This document shows, in pieces, positions 28,836 through 51,124 of a stretch of DNA of 64,000 nucleotides (positions within the stretch are counted from its first letter, which is position 1; the number at the start of each line of letters is the position of its first letter). The DNA lies in the NCBI GenBank assembly GCA_028690055.1, contig JAQVBZ010000003.1, forward strand, positions 7,779 to 71,778, in the 5' to 3' direction. Made by a program: the position numbers and the translations under genes. The notes beneath the pieces are model-generated. The model saw only the letters and a program-made list of their open reading frames with translations, had not been told where the DNA came from and searched no databases. The stretch comes from Minisyncoccota bacterium (GTDB lineage: Bacteria; Patescibacteriota; Minisyncoccia; JAHIHE01; JAGLIN01).

Positions 28836-29279
28836 CTATCTTTTAACCAGAAAATAAAACTCCATCACCACCACGAACAATACGAAAAAGAATGCGCTAT
28901 AGATATCGAGCCTTCTTTCCCCCTGCAAAATCAGCAATCCCACAAAAGTCACCGCGAGAAACATCCCCTGTCGAAAAGCGATTTCTACCTGCTGAAACTC
29001 AATCTTGTCCTCGAAAATCCGCCGCCGCAGATAGAATCCTAAAAGCGAGAAAAGACTGGTCAAAGCGAAAAATAGTGTGAAGTAAAAAAGCAGAAAACCT
29101 CCGAGATGCGCGCTATCAGGACTAATGTTCTGCAACACCAAAAACCAAGCCGCAAAAGAAACGACTGTACTAAAAATCATTCCCCATAGGTAAGTTTTAA
29201 TAGTCATAGGTTCAAGATTATCCGCCTTATAATGATTACATTCTAACCCATTTACGCCCTTTACGCAAAACTTAACCAC
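28836..29279 (-). CDS. Hypothetical membrane protein
   Basis: 147 aa with 4 predicted TM helices. Confidence 0.35.
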   Translation of the reverse strand: MVKFCVKGVNGLECNHYKADNLEPMTIKTYLWGMIFSTVVSFAAWFLVLQNISPDSAHLGGFLLFYFTLFFALTSLFSLLGFYLRRRIFEDKIEFQQVEIAFRQGMFLAVTFVGLLILQGERRLDIYSAFFFVLFVVVMEFYFLVKR

Positions 29280-29336: not shown

Positions 29337-29692
29337 GTCATTCTGGAATTTCGTTACTGCGAAATATCCGGAATCCCGAGACTATGCAAGACAAATATTA
29401 TACTTCGGTCTTATAACTAAGCCTTACTGGCTTAGCAGTGGGATCTCTGATAACAGCTTCGCAAATTTCGGGATAACAGACTGTAAAAAAGTAAAAATGC
29501 AATAAATTTAATAAGCCAAAGATAAATCGGGGGGGAAGCACAGGTGTGTCGAAAGCTTTTATCTATGTCATTCTAAAAGCAGCCCAAGCTTAATATACCC
29601 TCATCTGAATGGTATATTACAGCAATAATTTATCATTTAAGACTGATAAAGTTCAAGGGATTCCTCCGCTTCGCTGCGGAATGACAAAACGA
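29337..29692. repeat. Composite palindromic repeat region (second hairpin-repeat family)
   Basis: Left hairpin GTCATTCTGGAATTTCGTTACTGCGAAATATCCGGAATCCC; right unit AAAGTTCAAGGGATTCCTCCGCTTCGCTGCGGAATGACAAAACG. Both units recur at 63040-63095 and 63230-63290. Confidence 0.55.
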
Positions 29693-29820
29693 TGGATTTA
29701 CAGCAATAAATAAAGTTTTGACGAAATGATGTTAAAATCTCGAAATTCACATTACCACCCCTTGCCTTCTTTCTTTTTTTCATATATACTCTACCTATCC
29801 TCATAAAAGGATATTTTTAT

Positions 29821-29892
29821 CGCGGGGTAGAGCAGCGGCAGCTCGCGAGGCCCATAACCTCGAGGACGGGGGTTCGAATCCCTCCCCCGCAA
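29821..29892 (+). tRNA. Initiator tRNA-fMet (anticodon CAT)
   Basis: The 5' CGCGGGG... and 3' ...CCCCGCA ends give an unpaired C1/A72, the bacterial initiator hallmark. The anticodon loop is CCCATAA on a G-C-rich stem, and the T-arm is GGGGG-TTCGAAT-CCCTC. The sequence closely parallels E. coli tRNA-fMet. Confidence 0.85.
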
Positions 29893-29985
29893 CAACCAAA
29901 CGAAAGCACGCCTGATAAGGTGTGTTTTTGTTTGGTTGTTTAAAAATTGATATTCGAAGTTTATGCCCCGGAATCTTGCGCTGCG

Positions 29986-30024
29986 GGAGCAGGTTTAAAC
30001 CTGCTCCTGCTACTCCATTTTTTA
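29986..30024 (+). terminator. Palindromic terminator-like hairpin plus T-run
   Basis: The perfect 22-nt palindrome GGAGCAGGTTTAAACCTGCTCC is followed by ...CCATTTTTTAATTT. A related GCAGGTTTTAACCTGC hairpin follows the HD gene at 34683-34700. Confidence 0.4.
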
Positions 30025-30094
30025 ATTTGACAATCTTTATACTATGTCTATAATAGTATATAAAGAATAACATATTATTTTTAATAGCAAACAT

Positions 30095-30445
30095 ATGGAT
30101 TCATCACAAGAGATGACACGCGGCGCCATCGAACTTGTCGTGCTACAGACACTCTCCAACTACGGAGACAACTACGGCTATGAGCTTATCAAGATCATCG
30201 CGCAAAAAAGTGAGAGTATTTTTGAATTCAAAGAAGGAACACTTTATCCTTTGCTTTATCGTCTGGAGGAAAAGAAACTGGTAAAGAGCTATCGCCAAGT
30301 CGCCGAGAGCGGCAAAGAGAGAAGATTCTATCACATCACTGCCGCCGGAGAGAAAAAGTTGGCAAGCAAAAAATCAGAATTTGAGACTTTCCTCGCGGGG
30401 ATGGACGCAATCCTCAAGCCTAATCATTTAAGCTTGGAGAGATGA
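30095..30445 (+). CDS. PadR-family transcriptional regulator
   Basis: 116 aa with a winged-HTH containing the PadR signature (GAIELVVLQTL...GYELIKII...EGTLYPLLYRLEEKKLV). Confidence 0.85.
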   Translation: MDSSQEMTRGAIELVVLQTLSNYGDNYGYELIKIIAQKSESIFEFKEGTLYPLLYRLEEKKLVKSYRQVAESGKERRFYHITAAGEKKLASKKSEFETFLAGMDAILKPNHLSLER

Positions 30446-32073
30446 AGAACCGAACAATCCATAAACAATATGTGGACGACATAATCCGGGAGCTTCCCAT
30501 ATCCGAATACACCTCGCGATTTTGCGAGGAGCTTTTGGAGCACTTGGAAGACTGCGAGGAAGATTTCAATGATCAACCAGGGGCTGATAGTCCGAAACAA
30601 ACTGTGCGAAAAATCGGAGACAAAGATTTGATTATCCGAACCTACAAAGAATTTCACCGCGAACGTCACTCCAAACTCCGGCGGCTGGAACTCTCTTTTT
30701 ATGTCATATTTTCCTGGCTGATATTTTTTATTACCTCGACGATACCTAACTATTTAGAATCGACTTATCTCTACTCCGATCACCCCGCCCCCTTGTTTTC
30801 TGGCATCATGATTTTTTGTGCCGCCATCTTCTGTACTCTGGCTATTAATTATACCTTCTATAATTTTCTATCCGTCCGTCTATCCCTCCACTCGGAAAGT
30901 GACGATCGCAAGCAAAAATTGCTGGTCATATTCTTTTTTCTGCCAGCGATAAGCGCGCTGGTGAATCTTATGACTGCCTTCTCCGCCCCAGGGCAAGCTC
31001 AGCTCTGGGGAATATTGATTGCGCCCCTGCCCTTCCTCAGCGCCTTCCTGCCGGCGCTGATTAATTTTAAGATTATTTGCAAAAACAAAAAAAACGTCGG
31101 ACTCGACGCCACTCTACCATATCTGACTCTAACCGTTTTTTTGGTTTTTCTGCTTTTGGTCGCCGCCACAGACAAGATACTGTTTTTAGAAACACTGTCA
31201 CCCCTGCAAGCGATAGTCAATATTTTTTACATATTCCATTTCATATTATTTATCCTTATCGATGTCATAGTCGACTTGCCCTTTTTCGCACTCTTTCCTA
31301 TGGATAATTCCAATTCCGCCTCTTATGTGGTACCCGTACAAATGGTGAGCGTCAACATCGCCATCGCCGCCGCATACGTTATGTCGCTGGGAGCAATAGG
31401 TGTTTTAGCACTTCGCTCCGCGCGCAAGCAAAAAAATCTTGCAGAAAAAAGATGGAATAGAGCTGTCGGATTGATACTCTGCGCTTATGCCATATTTATG
31501 TTTCTGCCAATAAAATCCATAGACACACCGGCAATCAACTGGAATGTACCGGCGAAAGAAATTTCCAAACAAATTGAAAAGAAACAGTTCGGAATCTTTT
31601 ACAGTTTCATCAAATTCAAAAACGATGATGAGGGGTATGTTTACAATTATGACACTTGCAGCACCGAGAACGGCTTTATCGCCAAGCAAAGTTCAGGACA
31701 GATTTTCTACTTCGACGTGACGGGAGCTTCATCGATCAGAGAGGTAAAGACGGTGCGGATGGAGAAGCAAAAGGGGAAAGAATATTGTGCACAGATCCCG
31801 ACAAAAGGATATGACGCCGAAAGCCTTTTCTTTTTCCAAGAAGGATGGAAGTGTCTGGATAAAGAGGATACCCCTCTTCCCATGGGCAGGCTCGAAGGTT
31901 GCGCAAAAATCACTTACGCGGACCGCGAGATATTTAAGGAAACCTATGAACATTCTACGAGCGAGATCCAGTCCATCGAGATGAGTGCCGACGGAAACTG
32001 GGCGCTGATCAAGATGGCTGACGTTTACAGCGTAGATTTCTTGTACCTGGCAGATTTGCGAGAACCGAAATAA
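30442..32073 (+). CDS. PadR-associated membrane sensor (N-terminal HAAS/DUF1700-like domain, polytopic, C-terminal extracytoplasmic domain)
   Basis: 543 aa. The start overlaps the PadR stop (ATGA). The N-terminal ~80 aa (YVDDIIRELP...EELLEHLED...IGDKDLIIRTYKEF) fit the HAAS/DUF1700 pattern usually paired with PadR. About 7 TM helices follow, then a ~180-aa C-terminal soluble domain. Confidence 0.55.
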   Translation: MKNRTIHKQYVDDIIRELPISEYTSRFCEELLEHLEDCEEDFNDQPGADSPKQTVRKIGDKDLIIRTYKEFHRERHSKLRRLELSFYVIFSWLIFFITSTIPNYLESTYLYSDHPAPLFSGIMIFCAAIFCTLAINYTFYNFLSVRLSLHSESDDRKQKLLVIFFFLPAISALVNLMTAFSAPGQAQLWGILIAPLPFLSAFLPALINFKIICKNKKNVGLDATLPYLTLTVFLVFLLLVAATDKILFLETLSPLQAIVNIFYIFHFILFILIDVIVDLPFFALFPMDNSNSASYVVPVQMVSVNIAIAAAYVMSLGAIGVLALRSARKQKNLAEKRWNRAVGLILCAYAIFMFLPIKSIDTPAINWNVPAKEISKQIEKKQFGIFYSFIKFKNDDEGYVYNYDTCSTENGFIAKQSSGQIFYFDVTGASSIREVKTVRMEKQKGKEYCAQIPTKGYDAESLFFFQEGWKCLDKEDTPLPMGRLEGCAKITYADREIFKETYEHSTSEIQSIEMSADGNWALIKMADVYSVDFLYLADLREPK

Positions 32074-32245
32074 ACGCCTAAAATTAAAATAAGATTAGAA
32101 CATTAATGTAAAGATAAATTTTATATCTTCGTTCCTATCACCATGTCATAAAAATAAAAACATTACCGGATTCTCCCCTCTTCCGATACTACAAATTATT
32201 ATTTTGTAAATCGGCCCAAGAAATTGACCATATAAATGTAGCGCG

Positions 32246-33910
32246 ATGAAAGAAATAGCAAATACCGATAAATATGTGGACGACATCATCAAAGAGCTGC
32301 CGCCTTCACCACGCACGCGGAGATTCCGCGAGGAGCTCTTGGAGCATATAGCCGATGCCGAAGAGGATCTGCAAAATCAAGAAAATAATTTTAACCAAAT
32401 CAAAACAAAAGTCATGCAAAAAATCGGAGACAAAGACACACTAACCAAAAGTTACGTCGATTTCTATAGAAGCAGCCTATCCTCTCTGTGGCCGATAGAG
32501 CTGCTCATCTACATCGCCCTATCTTTGTGCGTCTTTCTCGTCACGGATCTTATCCTGAGTCCGTATGAACTGATTACAGACTCCTCGCTCTGGATCTTAA
32601 AAATAGCAGTGATCATTTTCTCCATCTTGGTTGCATATGTTTTCAACCGCATCGTGTATACTTTTGCTGCTAAACGCCTATCCCCGCACTTGTCCAGCAA
32701 GAAAGCCCACATTTTGGTAGCCTGGTCACTCGTAATCATGCCCATCCTCTCCTTTATTTACGGCTGGGCATACATTCTTTATTGGGAAGTGCAAAAGTCC
32801 GGCCTGGAATTTTTCATATCCGAATACTTCGCTATCACGGTGTTAAAAATTGCGATTATGCATCTGGCTGCCGCCATCGCTTTCGGCATCATCCCACGCC
32901 GAAAGAAAAAAGTTTCTACCCTCAGCAATAAAGTCCCGTATCTTCTCCTGTTCATCTTTCTGACAATAATGTTTTTTTCCGTCATGCTAGCCCAGCAAAA
33001 ATCCGACTCGCTCTCCGCGTCCGGGCAATTCATAAATGTACTGACATCTTATCTGGCGATGCCGATTAATATTTTATATTCTTTCCTGGACGGCCTGGAT
33101 GTCTATGCTCCGAGCGGTGGGCAGATTTTTACCCTCAACGTTTTCGCCGCCCTGGATTCGTTAGCATTCTTCAGAATGTTTTTGGCACTCTTGATCATTA
33201 CAGCCGTGGGAGGTGTTTGGCTTATCATTTCCGCCGATAAATCCAAGTCAGAAAACGGCAAAAATTGGAAGCGCGCCACAGGCATCGCTCTTATCGCCTA
33301 CTCCGCCTTTGTATTGCTCCCCATTAACAAAGTGCAGCAAGAGGATCCGATTTTGAACGTTCCAGCTTTCAACGTAACGCAGAAAATCGAACAAGATCAA
33401 CGGGGGTTACTCTATCCGGCACTAAAATATGTAGACCAAAGTATTAGAAATAATGCCTTCTACGCGGTCTATAGAGATGGCAATCTCTTTACTATCGGAC
33501 AATCATTCGGTGCAGCGGGCAACTATTTTCTGATCGATGTAAACAACGTTCCGGAAGGACAAGATCCTGTGATTTCTACCAACGCGAAAGAAAAAGGGAT
33601 GGAATCCTACACGCTGGAATTCAATCCGTTCGAGGGAATGATTCCACAGGGATTCGAATGCCCCGATTGCATAACAACCAGGGAAAACGACGAAGCAGAA
33701 GACATATCGTACTCCTCTTATGATGATTCAGGAACAAGAACGTACTATTCTGCAGATTATACAAATTTGACCTACAACGGGCACAGGCTCTTAGCCGAGG
33801 GAAAAAATGTAAAACCTCACGAGATCAAGGTAAGTGCCAATCAAGAGTGGGCGCTCATCGAGTTTGATAGTGAGCAGTTATATCTGATAGATTTGAGAAG
33901 ATTGAAGTAG
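32246..33910 (+). CDS. Tandem paralogue of the PadR-associated HAAS membrane sensor
   Basis: 554 aa. The N-terminal cytoplasmic module (YVDDIIKELPPS..EELLEHIADAEED..IGDKDTLTKSYVDF) and the C-terminal tail (...EWALIEFDSEQLYLIDLRRLK vs ...NWALIKMADVYSVDFLYLADLREPK) are conserved with the upstream gene. The central TM and extracellular parts have diverged. Confidence 0.55.
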   Translation: MKEIANTDKYVDDIIKELPPSPRTRRFREELLEHIADAEEDLQNQENNFNQIKTKVMQKIGDKDTLTKSYVDFYRSSLSSLWPIELLIYIALSLCVFLVTDLILSPYELITDSSLWILKIAVIIFSILVAYVFNRIVYTFAAKRLSPHLSSKKAHILVAWSLVIMPILSFIYGWAYILYWEVQKSGLEFFISEYFAITVLKIAIMHLAAAIAFGIIPRRKKKVSTLSNKVPYLLLFIFLTIMFFSVMLAQQKSDSLSASGQFINVLTSYLAMPINILYSFLDGLDVYAPSGGQIFTLNVFAALDSLAFFRMFLALLIITAVGGVWLIISADKSKSENGKNWKRATGIALIAYSAFVLLPINKVQQEDPILNVPAFNVTQKIEQDQRGLLYPALKYVDQSIRNNAFYAVYRDGNLFTIGQSFGAAGNYFLIDVNNVPEGQDPVISTNAKEKGMESYTLEFNPFEGMIPQGFECPDCITTRENDEAEDISYSSYDDSGTRTYYSADYTNLTYNGHRLLAEGKNVKPHEIKVSANQEWALIEFDSEQLYLIDLRRLK

Positions 33911-34023
33911 CTTGCCACCGCTTTTACATACAGAAACAAAAAGTCCGGATCGCCTCTGGACTTTTTTGTTTTTTTATATTACTATTGAAAGGTATTTGAC
34001 AGGCTTTATTTACAAATCGCAAC

Positions 34024-34098
34024 ATACCCGCGCCAGGGTAGCTCAGTTTGGTTAGAGCATAGGACTCATAAACCTAAGGTCGTGGGTTCGACTCCCAC
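34024..34098 (+). tRNA. tRNA with CAT anticodon (elongator Met or lysidine-modified Ile2)
   Basis: Manual fold: acceptor GCCAGGG/TCCTGGC, D-arm GCTC-AGTTTGGTTA-GAGC, anticodon stem TAGGA/ACCTA with loop CTCATAA, T-arm GTGGG-TTCGACT-CCCAC. Confidence 0.75.
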
Positions 34099-34124
34099 TC
34101 CTGGCACTCACTAAGTTTACAATC

Positions 34125-34673
34125 ATGAACCGAGACAGAGTAGCCGATTTCCTCTTCGAAATCGGCACTTTGCGCAATATGCGCAGAATGCAAAGCCAAA
34201 TCTTACCAGAATCAAATGACAGCATCGCTTCTCACTCTTTCGAAGTGGCAATCATCGGTATGATTCTTGCCCGAAGCGAAAACGCTGATGAGAATAAAGT
34301 AATCAAGATGTGCCTCTTCCACGATATCGCAGAAGCAAGGATCGGAGACGCAAATTTCATCCACAAGTTTTATGTTCAAGCTGACGAAGACAAGGCGTTG
34401 CGCGATCAAATCGCCGACACGCCGATTGCTGAGGAGATTTTGGCAATCATCAACGAATTTGAAGCGAGAGAGAGTAAAGAGGCTATTATCGCCAAAGATG
34501 CGGATCTGCTGGATCAGATTTTAGTCCAGTCTGCCACAATCAAAAACGCCGAGGACAAAAAGCTCTGGAATGAAAACAGCGCCAAAGACCTCCAAACTGA
34601 AATTGCCAAAGAATTGGCCAAGGCCCTGTCAGACACAAATCCCCTGTCCTGGGTTTATAAAATGGCAGAATAG
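34125..34673 (+). CDS. HD-domain 5'-deoxynucleotidase (YfbR-like)
   Basis: 182 aa with the H...HD...D metal motif (ASHSFEVA..., CLFHDIAEARIGD). Confidence 0.7.
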   Translation: MNRDRVADFLFEIGTLRNMRRMQSQILPESNDSIASHSFEVAIIGMILARSENADENKVIKMCLFHDIAEARIGDANFIHKFYVQADEDKALRDQIADTPIAEEILAIINEFEARESKEAIIAKDADLLDQILVQSATIKNAEDKKLWNENSAKDLQTEIAKELAKALSDTNPLSWVYKMAE

Positions 34674-49468: not shown

Positions 49469-51124
49469 CTATTTCAGAAATCCTCCGTCTTTATAATAAT
49501 CAAGCTCTGTCTGGTTGACGTCAATGACCTGGTCCCAATTAAAATTGTACCTGTCGAATACAGCCGCATTATAGATCTTCTTTTTCGTATCACCCTGGAT
49601 CAGATAAATATCATTGGAACCGCTCAGCCGGACGAGATTAGAAATAGTATAAGACTCCATCTCCTTTTTGGATATGATCTGTACATCCTCCATCCTATTG
49701 CCATAAGAATTAAAAATCTCCAAGGTGGGAATAAATTTACGGACACCGCCACTGAGATAATAGACGCTAGGTTCCTTACTGGCCCGAATAAGAAATGCGG
49801 TCTTGTATTTGTTGACCACGGAAACGTTCACATCTTTTACATCATTCCAATCGAAACCGTAATCTATGAAAATTTCCGGGTTGGGAATATGACGCTTGAT
49901 ACCGTTCGTCACTAGAAAAATCTTGGCGTCCCCGGACTGCCTGATAAGGTTGTCTTCGAAATCAGCAATCTTGTTGAGCTCCGCATCCGAAAGAATTTTG
50001 ATATTGGTCCACTGATACCCCAGTTGCTCGAAGACTTCGGGAGTCGAAATCCATTTTTTCTTCCCGCCGATCATCACATATACTTTAGTAGAGGAAGCGG
50101 TCTTGATAAGAGTACCGTCGCCGTTGGACGGTGTAGGAGTCGGAGTGGGAGTAGGCGTGGGTGCGGGTGCTGGAGTCGCTTTGTACGTTGCTGTTAGACT
50201 GAGTCCGTGATCGGGTATGGTGACTATCGTCGTCGAGGAGGTCGTGCTGGAGATATTGCCCGTATCCCCGGTCCAACGGTCGAAAACTCTGCCCGAAGCT
50301 GGCGCATTCGCATTAACCGTTACTTTCTCCCCGAGATAATACGTTCCCGAACCGGAACCGTTATTAACGGAGAGGGTGTACACGACGGCATTAGTGTCCC
50401 GGTACGTCGCTGTCAGACTGATGTTGCCTTCCGGGATTGTGACCCTAGTGGCAGAAGCATAGAAATCATAAACAAGACCGACGTCGCCCGTCCACTGATC
50501 GAATAATTTGCCATAAGCCGGAGCATTGGCTGAAATATTCACCACGGTGCCGGGAGTATAGGAACCGGATCCGGAACCGCCATTTACTGTGAGGCTATAC
50601 TTGGGTATGGCTACCGTTTTGAAATTCGCAGTAAGATTGATGTTCCCTTCCGGAACAGTAACTTTGGTGTTCGCAGCATAAAAGTCATTCACATAACCGA
50701 TATCGCCCGACCATTGATCAAAGGCCTGACCCACCCCCGGAGTATTAGCATAGATACTCACCTCGGTACCGGCAGTATAAGTCCCCGAACCGCTGCCGCC
50801 CGTAACCGTAAGGGTATATTTCGAAACAGGCGCATCCTTATAAGTCGCAATCAAAACGATATCGCTTTCCGGAATCGTCACCTTGGTGCTAGATGCGTAA
50901 ATATCAAAAACATAGTTGATATTCCCCGCCCATTTATCAAAAACCTGACCGGCAGGAGGAGTATAAGCCATAATATTCACATTCATGCCGGGAGCATAAG
51001 AACCCGATCCGGAGCCTCTCGTAACATCGAGATAGTAATCTTCCGAAGCCGCCAGAACACCAAAAGCCGCAGAGCAGGATAAGATGCAGAGCAAAATAAA
51101 AGATTTTATAACTTTCATGTTCAT
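49469..51124 (-). CDS. Secreted surface protein: InlB B-repeat (Flg_new)-like repeats, Pro/Thr linker, C-terminal 4 x ~45-aa repeat domain
   Basis: 551 aa with a signal peptide. Five ~70-aa repeats follow (Y.LTV.GGSGSG.YT.GT.V.I.A....G..FD.W.GD.G). Then comes APAPTPTPTPTPTP, then four repeats of the form K(V/I)(Y/F)....GG.(K/R)K.I.....F...G(Y/F).W..V..V. Confidence 0.55.
   Translation of the reverse strand: MNMKVIKSFILLCILSCSAAFGVLAASEDYYLDVTRGSGSGSYAPGMNVNIMAYTPPAGQVFDKWAGNINYVFDIYASSTKVTIPESDIVLIATYKDAPVSKYTLTVTGGSGSGTYTAGTEVSIYANTPGVGQAFDQWSGDIGYVNDFYAANTKVTVPEGNINLTANFKTVAIPKYSLTVNGGSGSGSYTPGTVVNISANAPAYGKLFDQWTGDVGLVYDFYASATRVTIPEGNISLTATYRDTNAVVYTLSVNNGSGSGTYYLGEKVTVNANAPASGRVFDRWTGDTGNISSTTSSTTIVTIPDHGLSLTATYKATPAPAPTPTPTPTPTPSNGDGTLIKTASSTKVYVMIGGKKKWISTPEVFEQLGYQWTNIKILSDAELNKIADFEDNLIRQSGDAKIFLVTNGIKRHIPNPEIFIDYGFDWNDVKDVNVSVVNKYKTAFLIRASKEPSVYYLSGGVRKFIPTLEIFNSYGNRMEDVQIISKKEMESYTISNLVRLSGSNDIYLIQGDTKKKIYNAAVFDRYNFNWDQVIDVNQTELDYYKDGGFLK

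Follow-up and report, generated by a model that had tools for sequence, protein, structure and literature searches.

The DNA analysed here, 64,000 nucleotides of contig JAQVBZ010000003.1 (the window), carries a three-gene operon in which padR is followed by genes for two related membrane proteins, which we call A-type and B-type. We read it, with a probability of roughly 70%, as a HAAS-PadR signalling operon that regulates itself, in a bacterium of the Patescibacteria (candidate phyla radiation, CPR). This kind of system has already been described, as HAAS-PadR dyads in which HAAS is fused to assorted multi-transmembrane (multi-TM) domains. New here are a partner family that is confined to one lineage and whose outer fold is unassigned, an operator that is very sharply conserved, and arrays in which one PadR is followed by one to three HAAS proteins.

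The open reading frames of the three genes all lie on the forward strand (Table 1), at the coordinates and with the lengths given in an initial annotation of this DNA, which had also called the first gene a PadR regulator and proposed that it overlaps the A-type gene. The overlap is the sequence ATGA at 30442-30445, where the padR stop codon meets the A-type start codon. The padR product matches Pfam PadR (PF03551) far above the cut-off (78.1 bits against 27, E=5.2e-22), over residues 16-90 and model positions 1-74 of 75. The best NCBIfam model is TIGR03433 (padR_acidobact), which scores 90 bits, under its cut-off of 101.8, and every relative of the protein in the PDB is a PadR-family chain, the closest being short regulators such as 5dym (E=9e-15) and 3f8b (E=8e-11). 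No terminator was found between padR and the A-type and B-type genes until position 33938.

The sequence TTGACA-16 nt-TATAAT ahead of padR is the only site within 29600-34300 that matches the consensus promoter at all 12 positions. Its -35 hexamer and the stretch up to the -10 are kept in homologous loci that we fetched for comparison (L001, L002, L003, L006, L009, L010, L011 and L013), among which the non-coding DNA flanking the promoter has diverged; between the window and L002, nucleotide identity is 88.6% over the promoter and leader and 38% over a neutral-looking upstream gap. Inside this promoter lies the palindrome ATACTAT-N7-ATAGTAT, of which the 64-kb window contains a single perfect copy. 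The exact palindrome is also found once per locus in ten fetched loci (L002, L003/L004/L005, L006 and L009-L013, of which L003, L004 and L005 are copies of one place), and its position in all ten is the padR promoter; L001 has a variant with one mismatch. Palindrome and promoter together are kept in 10/10 loci having upstream DNA. Compared with the PadRs of distant loci, the window PadR shows 42-49% identity, and its recognition stretch, EGTLYPLLYRLE, is invariant among them, remaining unchanged across clades whose membrane partners share just 18-20% identity. These patterns of conservation point strongly to PadR autorepression through the palindrome. A scan of the window for a second PadR operator ahead of the B-type gene found none.

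Over their whole lengths, the A-type and B-type proteins can be aligned with 28% identity (E=1e-42), a resemblance far beyond chance because both belong to one family of 135 representatives. The family was delineated with a profile built from the window subclade only (alignment A1), in an exhaustive search of 1.84 billion representatives (50% clustering) that returned 135 proteins at E<=1e-3, 94 of them also passing E<=1e-10, mostly as full-length matches of 480-560 residues; 95 of the 135 were aligned and domain-scanned. A word-indexed homologue search yielded just 5 and 9 clusters for the two proteins, and the impression of a tiny family that this gave was overturned by the exhaustive search. 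GTDB species-representative genomes contain one locus. Both window proteins are identical to NCBI hypothetical proteins from metagenome-assembled genomes of Candidatus Paceibacterota / Pacebacteria, and each of the three family members for which a source is named comes from Patescibacteria. In a distance-based neighbour-joining tree, whose deeper nodes are weak (bootstrap 50-75), the A-type protein falls in an A-type clade and the B-type protein in a B-type clade (core bootstrap 100 for each), and a single subclade (bootstrap 100) contains both core clades; at the deeper A and B groupings, support is 67-75%.

Identity between the two proteins is 46% in the HAAS domain (residues 1-78), 24% in the TM core and 25% in the C-terminal domain (C-domain). 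The claim in the initial annotation that the TM core and the ~180-residue C-domain had "diverged completely" is contradicted by the significant similarity of each domain alone (E=3e-6 for the TM cores, E=3e-8 for the C-domains). Its companion claim, that the N-terminus and the extreme C-terminus had been kept, was correct: these are the best-preserved parts, and the motifs YVDDII.ELP...RF.EELLEH..D.EED...IGDKD and WALI...YL.DLR, respectively, are common to both proteins.

A padR gene stands directly upstream of the family member or members in 12/12 independent loci, mostly with a 4-nucleotide overlap. These loci comprise the window and its close relatives L001, L002, L003/L004, L009 and L010, as well as L006, L007, L008, L011, L012 and L013 from distant clades. 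The close relatives share the synteny gyrB-pheT-pheS-NIF3...HD hydrolase, and the distant loci share only padR and the membrane-protein gene, indicating that this pair is the conserved unit. In none of the fetched loci was the B-type gene seen apart from PadR, and the sole copy in L003/L004, which is B-like, is itself overlapped by padR, so the PadR linkage that the initial annotation had drawn for the second gene is borne out.

The number of family members per PadR varies from one to three. The window and L002 have two (A-type and B-type), as do L009 and L006; L010 has three; and L001 (A-type), L003/L004 (B-like), L011, L012 and L013 have one each, a 2.1-kb uncalled gap in L011 holding no hidden extra family copy. 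At L006, the two copies are more closely related to each other than to any other member (bootstrap 100), indicating that this duplication was independent, and at least two independent duplications have occurred in all. Each copy retains a full HAAS domain. At L010 (499-5576), three tandem members of 522, 533 and 544 residues lie behind a single padR, and the spacers between them share their 5' part, indicating that the duplications took intergenic DNA along.

According to PMC11237479, a HAAS domain consists of three helices, with a kink at a conserved GxP in the third, and always occurs beside a standalone PadR. The initial annotation assigned the N-termini of the membrane proteins to HAAS/DUF1700; the HAAS part of this assignment is sustained by family profiles, and the DUF1700 part is not, PF08006 being matched by neither the window proteins nor the 95 family members at E<=0.01. 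Pfam HAAS (PF22564) is matched by 22/95 aligned members and NCBIfam perm_prefix_1 (NF038403) by 35/95 (best E=3.1e-13); every match lies at residues ~5-65, and the full 55-position HAAS model is covered. One member (P0128) exceeds the Pfam gathering score (31.6 bits against a cut-off of 27), and for one distant member the NCBI name is already "permease prefix domain 1-containing protein". Because a link via the TM or C-terminal parts had to be excluded, the comparison of the window subclade with a distant clade by hhalign was restricted to the N-terminal 78 residues, and it gave a probability of 98.9% with E=1.3e-17 over 73 columns. AlphaFold2 (AF2) models the A-type N-terminus as helices at residues 4-17, 22-42 and 50-58/61-75, the third broken at G59-D60, with a predicted local distance difference test score (pLDDT) of 55-73 over the HAAS region; the glycine at this kink, G59, is kept in 93/95 members, and position 61 is proline in 52/95. 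The profile matches, the hhalign result and the third-helix kink at the conserved glycine together support the assignment of the A-type and B-type N-termini to the HAAS domain, with homology established through the family profiles.

Behind the HAAS domain, the A-type protein has eight hydrophobic stretches by hydropathy. Positive-inside charge statistics over 90 full-length members show that loops 2-3, 4-5 and 327-339 are rich in lysine and arginine (average K+R of 3.7, 4.3 and 2.9), and that loops 1-2 and 3-4 and the 45-residue hydrophobic segment 248-297 are K/R-poor and acidic. This acidic character is shared by the C-domain, which has two cysteines, C471 and C487, that are kept in 97% and 94% of members. 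From these features we infer a topology in which the N-terminus would be inside, the chain would cross the membrane seven times, segment 248-297 would lie on the outer side without crossing, and the C-domain would be extracytoplasmic, an arrangement that conflicts with a naive helix count.

The core has no consistent match in Pfam, NCBIfam or the PDB; a sequence-profile search of the PDB returned TM noise only and did not retrieve 2O3L (DUF1048); and the full-length AF2 model (pLDDT 70) has its best Foldseek match in the PDB to a G-protein-coupled receptor, which at E=0.056 is not significant. FtsX is matched by 1/95 members, weakly (E=0.0076; 16.7 bits, under the cut-off of 25.5). The domain-only AF2 model of residues 361-543 is better (pLDDT 83.9; predicted TM-score, pTM, 0.84), and Foldseek found no fold match for it in the PDB (best E=0.017, TM-score <=0.25), in agreement, within the limits of this comparison, with the initial annotation's statement that the outer domain was not assignable to a known fold. 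A beta-propeller (PD40/WD40/prolyl-oligopeptidase N-domain) was considered for the C-domain and rejected, as there was no significant sequence or fold match to its blades. In the B-type core clade, the second family-conserved cysteine is replaced by a vicinal CxxC, C-P-D/N-C (F-E-C-P-D-C in the window, in the region 33600-33625), suggesting that in this clade the disulphide of the outer domain is rearranged or that the domain has a redox or metal site.

The spacer between the A-type and B-type genes is 79.7% identical in nucleotide sequence to its counterpart in L002 (4990-5153), compared with 61% for the B-type coding sequence and the 38% of the neutral-looking upstream gap. Conserved blocks and an inverted repeat, TACAAA-N7-TTTGTA, are present in three loci, the window, L002 and L010 (3776-3941), and a TATAAAT box lies 9 nucleotides ahead of the B-type ATG. 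We found no PadR operator and no terminator in the spacer, and a riboswitch or known RNA was rejected because there was no Rfam match. The spacer may be an internal promoter producing a near-leaderless mRNA, or a translational element.

We propose that a PadR dimer would bind the palindrome and repress padR and presumably both membrane-protein genes. The HAAS domains would face the cytoplasm and the C-terminal domains would lie outside; a signal at the outer or membrane part of either protein would alter the HAAS groove, PadR would be captured at, or released from, the membrane, and the operon would be derepressed. Such a scheme of membrane capture and release has been proposed for HAAS-PadR dyads (PMC11237479, PMC12419801). 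In Listeria monocytogenes, LltR (Lmo0599), which is paired with Lmo0600, and LstR, which is paired with Lmo0421, are autorepressing PadRs that control mainly their own operons (Hauf et al. 2019, PMC6624303). Since the sole operator in the 64 kb is the operon's own, and given this self-control by LstR and LltR, the membrane proteins are probably both the sensor and the main output of the circuit. The paralogues, one to three per PadR, would give one repressor several inputs with different specificities; for the window this would mean two sensors feeding one PadR, as the initial annotation had suggested.

Several points weigh against the operon being such a signalling circuit. Contact between HAAS and PadR is itself still a proposal in PMC11237479 and PMC12419801. 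The A-type protein has no Pfam or NCBIfam match, even with the isolated N-terminus scanned at E<=10; neither window protein matches Pfam HAAS directly (whole proteins and isolated N-termini, E<=10); and the isolated B-type N-terminus matches perm_prefix_1 with 21.5 bits (E=1.6e-4), under the cut-off of 30. The proline of GxP is replaced by lysine (G-D-K) in both window proteins and in their subclade, K61 being invariant in alignment A1, and the proposed PadR-contact groove may therefore differ. AF2 draws eight membrane helices, which would place the C-domain in the cytoplasm, and the charge statistics and the cysteine pair are the sole two grounds for placing it outside. Lastly, the conserved spacer could contain a promoter of its own, which would allow expression of the B-type gene without regulation by PadR.

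An alternative that we consider improbable is that PadR itself senses a small molecule by binding it and then comes off the operator, as LmrR and PadR do in Gram-positive bacteria, and that the membrane proteins are purely effectors under its induction, such as exporters or proteins of envelope remodelling, with HAAS providing at most feedback and not the entry of the signal. The window PadR is of the short type, and its closest solved relatives include the LmrR group (3f8b/3f8c). LmrR binds drugs directly. The regulon also seems confined to the operon, as with efflux-controlling PadRs, and the membrane core, with 7-8 helices, is large and of transporter-like size, but it has no similarity to any transporter family. 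Three further points count against this alternative: HAAS is the best-conserved part, both between the paralogues (46% versus 24-25%) and across the family; the absolute adjacency of PadR exceeds what a simple link between regulator and target needs; and an outer domain that is large and of the disulphide type would more typically be expected in a sensor.

A second alternative, which we regard as less probable still, is that the A-type and B-type proteins form one heteromeric complex as obligate partners, making up a single sensor or machine, and are not alternative inputs. Single-copy loci of both types (A-type in L001, B-like in L003/L004, and single copies in L011-L013), the variation in copy number with its independent duplication in L006, and the complete HAAS domain that each copy has of its own all argue against this arrangement, despite the age of the A-type and B-type lineages, the retention of both in the window, L002 and probably L010, their apparent co-transcription without an intervening terminator and the conservation of the spacer between them. 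The possibility that the HAAS resemblance reflects convergent helical composition, in PadR-regulated membrane proteins of unrelated function, could appeal to the lack of a direct HAAS, DUF1700 or perm_prefix match in the A-type protein and to the GxP proline missing from the window subclade, but it is largely refuted by the hhalign result for the N-terminus alone, the homologues that match HAAS and perm_prefix_1 at the same position, the coincidence of the predicted third-helix kink with the conserved glycine and the name that NCBI has given to a distant member.

Among the known systems closest to the operon are the HAAS-PadR-like winged helix-turn-helix dyads of Ravi et al. (2024, mSystems, PMC11237479). 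Like those dyads, the operon has a standalone short PadR immediately upstream of a membrane protein whose N-terminal HAAS domain consists of three helices, the third of them kinked. The two also have in common an obligate pairing (here in all 12 loci) and the fusion of HAAS to a multi-TM domain that is otherwise uncharacterized, which that study explicitly lists as a class. However, the core and C-domain found here are not among the partners named there (PspC, LiaI-LiaF-TM, Toastrack, FtsX, FtsW/RodA and VanZ), and there are no PspC, Toastrack or Lia genes nearby. The window subclade also differs in having GxK for GxP, and the family in having one to three tandem HAAS proteins per PadR and source-named members that are all Patescibacteria. 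The Listeria LltR and LstR operons similarly encode a membrane protein that spans the membrane several times and has a DUF1700/HAAS N-terminus, but PadR is accompanied there either by a DUF1700 membrane protein with a DUF4097 protein behind it or by an FtsW/RodA homologue. Neither arrangement includes a core or C-domain homologous to those described here, and no duplication of the HAAS protein was reported (PMC6624303).

Acidobacterial PadRs (TIGR03433) that accompany "ADOP" permeases, in which perm_prefix_1 (NF038403) is joined to FtsX, are alike in the best NCBIfam model for PadR and in an N-terminus that matches perm_prefix_1. Unlike those permeases, the family has no FtsX/MacB-type domains apart from the one weak FtsX match, and its large outer domain is at the C-terminus. 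In the FtsX/MacB layout, the large outer domain lies between TM1 and TM2. HAAS-FtsX fusions are also listed in PMC11237479. In its logic, the proposed circuit would resemble anti-sigma/extracytoplasmic function (ECF) sigma pairs and one-component membrane-tethered regulators, in that a cytoplasmic helical domain of a membrane protein would hold or release a soluble transcription factor, both are encoded in a single translationally coupled operon, and that operon would be self-regulating. Here, however, a PadR repressor takes the place of the sigma factor, the systems are unrelated in sequence and in fold, and neither protease sites nor components of regulated intramembrane proteolysis are evident.

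Table 1. Features of the padR operon, in nucleotide positions of the window, with the basis of each assignment
Feature	Position	Strand	Basis or remark
Consensus sigma-70-type promoter TTGACA-16 nt-TATAAT, upstream of padR and the genes behind it	30027..30054	+	12/12 match
Putative PadR operator, 21-bp palindrome	30039..30059		Between -35 and -10, overlaps -10
padR, short single-domain PadR winged-helix repressor, 116 aa	30095..30445	+	Pfam PadR
A-type HAAS membrane protein, 543 aa	30442..32073	+	Open reading frame; start overlaps padR stop
A-type residues 1-78, predicted cytoplasmic HAAS domain	30442..30675	+	AF2, hhalign
A-type residues 79-360, polytopic membrane core, unnamed family	30676..31521	+	Hydropathy, positive-inside statistics
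A-type residues 361-543, C-terminal helix and ~10-strand beta domain, probably extracytoplasmic	31522..32070	+	Domain-only AF2 model
Conserved 172-nt spacer between A-type and B-type genes	32074..32245	+	Nucleotide identity to L002
B-type HAAS membrane protein, 554 aa, three-part architecture as in A-type	32246..33910	+	Open reading frame
Strong terminator-like hairpin (12-bp stem, 33938-33966) and T-run, operon end	33938..33976	+	Intrinsic-terminator reading of sequence

The operon is bracketed by tRNA-Met(CAT) genes at 29821-29893 and 34032-34107, one of which may encode an initiator tRNA or tRNA-Ile2; the same bracket is present in L001, L002 and L003. Between the upstream tRNA gene and the padR promoter, at ~29976-30003, there is a GC-rich hairpin (GCGGGAGCAGGTTTAAACCTGCTCCTGC) that is kept in L001 and L002, unlike the sequence around it; as it is not followed by a T-run, it is not a classical terminator. 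Placed divergently upstream of the operon, a gene at 28836-29279 (reverse strand) encodes a predicted membrane protein of 147 residues with no Pfam match. It has a syntenic counterpart, a 123-aa gene, in L001-L004 and is absent beside the distant family members, and so it is probably outside the module. In L007, an Imm50 (polymorphic-toxin immunity) gene at 1978-2400 lies directly downstream of the distant family member, a single observation. Elsewhere in the window, the gene at 49469-51124 (reverse strand) encodes a 551-residue protein with four divergent InlB B-repeat (Flg_new_2) domains (E=7e-47), which is likely a surface protein unrelated to the PadR operon and of interest for an episymbiotic CPR cell.

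HAAS-PadR dyads were proposed, on comparative-genomic grounds, to be an alternative to two-component systems, and what is known of this kind of system is not changed by the operon itself. The family does offer an unusually clean test case, with two kinds of parts, a sharply defined and near-invariant 21-bp operator and an invariant PadR recognition stretch, and its natural range of one to three sensors per repressor, together with a confidently modelled outer domain, makes it practical for testing whether HAAS does capture or release PadR. It also adds a candidate signalling route for CPR bacteria, whose environmental sensing is poorly known. Tentatively, and with less confidence than we have in the operon as a signalling unit, we suggest that the family could consist of Patescibacteria-restricted, approximately seven-pass surface receptors with an extracellular fold that has no solved relative, which would signal to DNA in one step via HAAS-PadR and which tandem duplication (one to three copies, at least two independent events) would have turned into multi-input arrays on a single repressor. 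If so, they would constitute a compact substitute for two-component systems in reduced, host-dependent genomes, possibly one that senses the host or the envelope.

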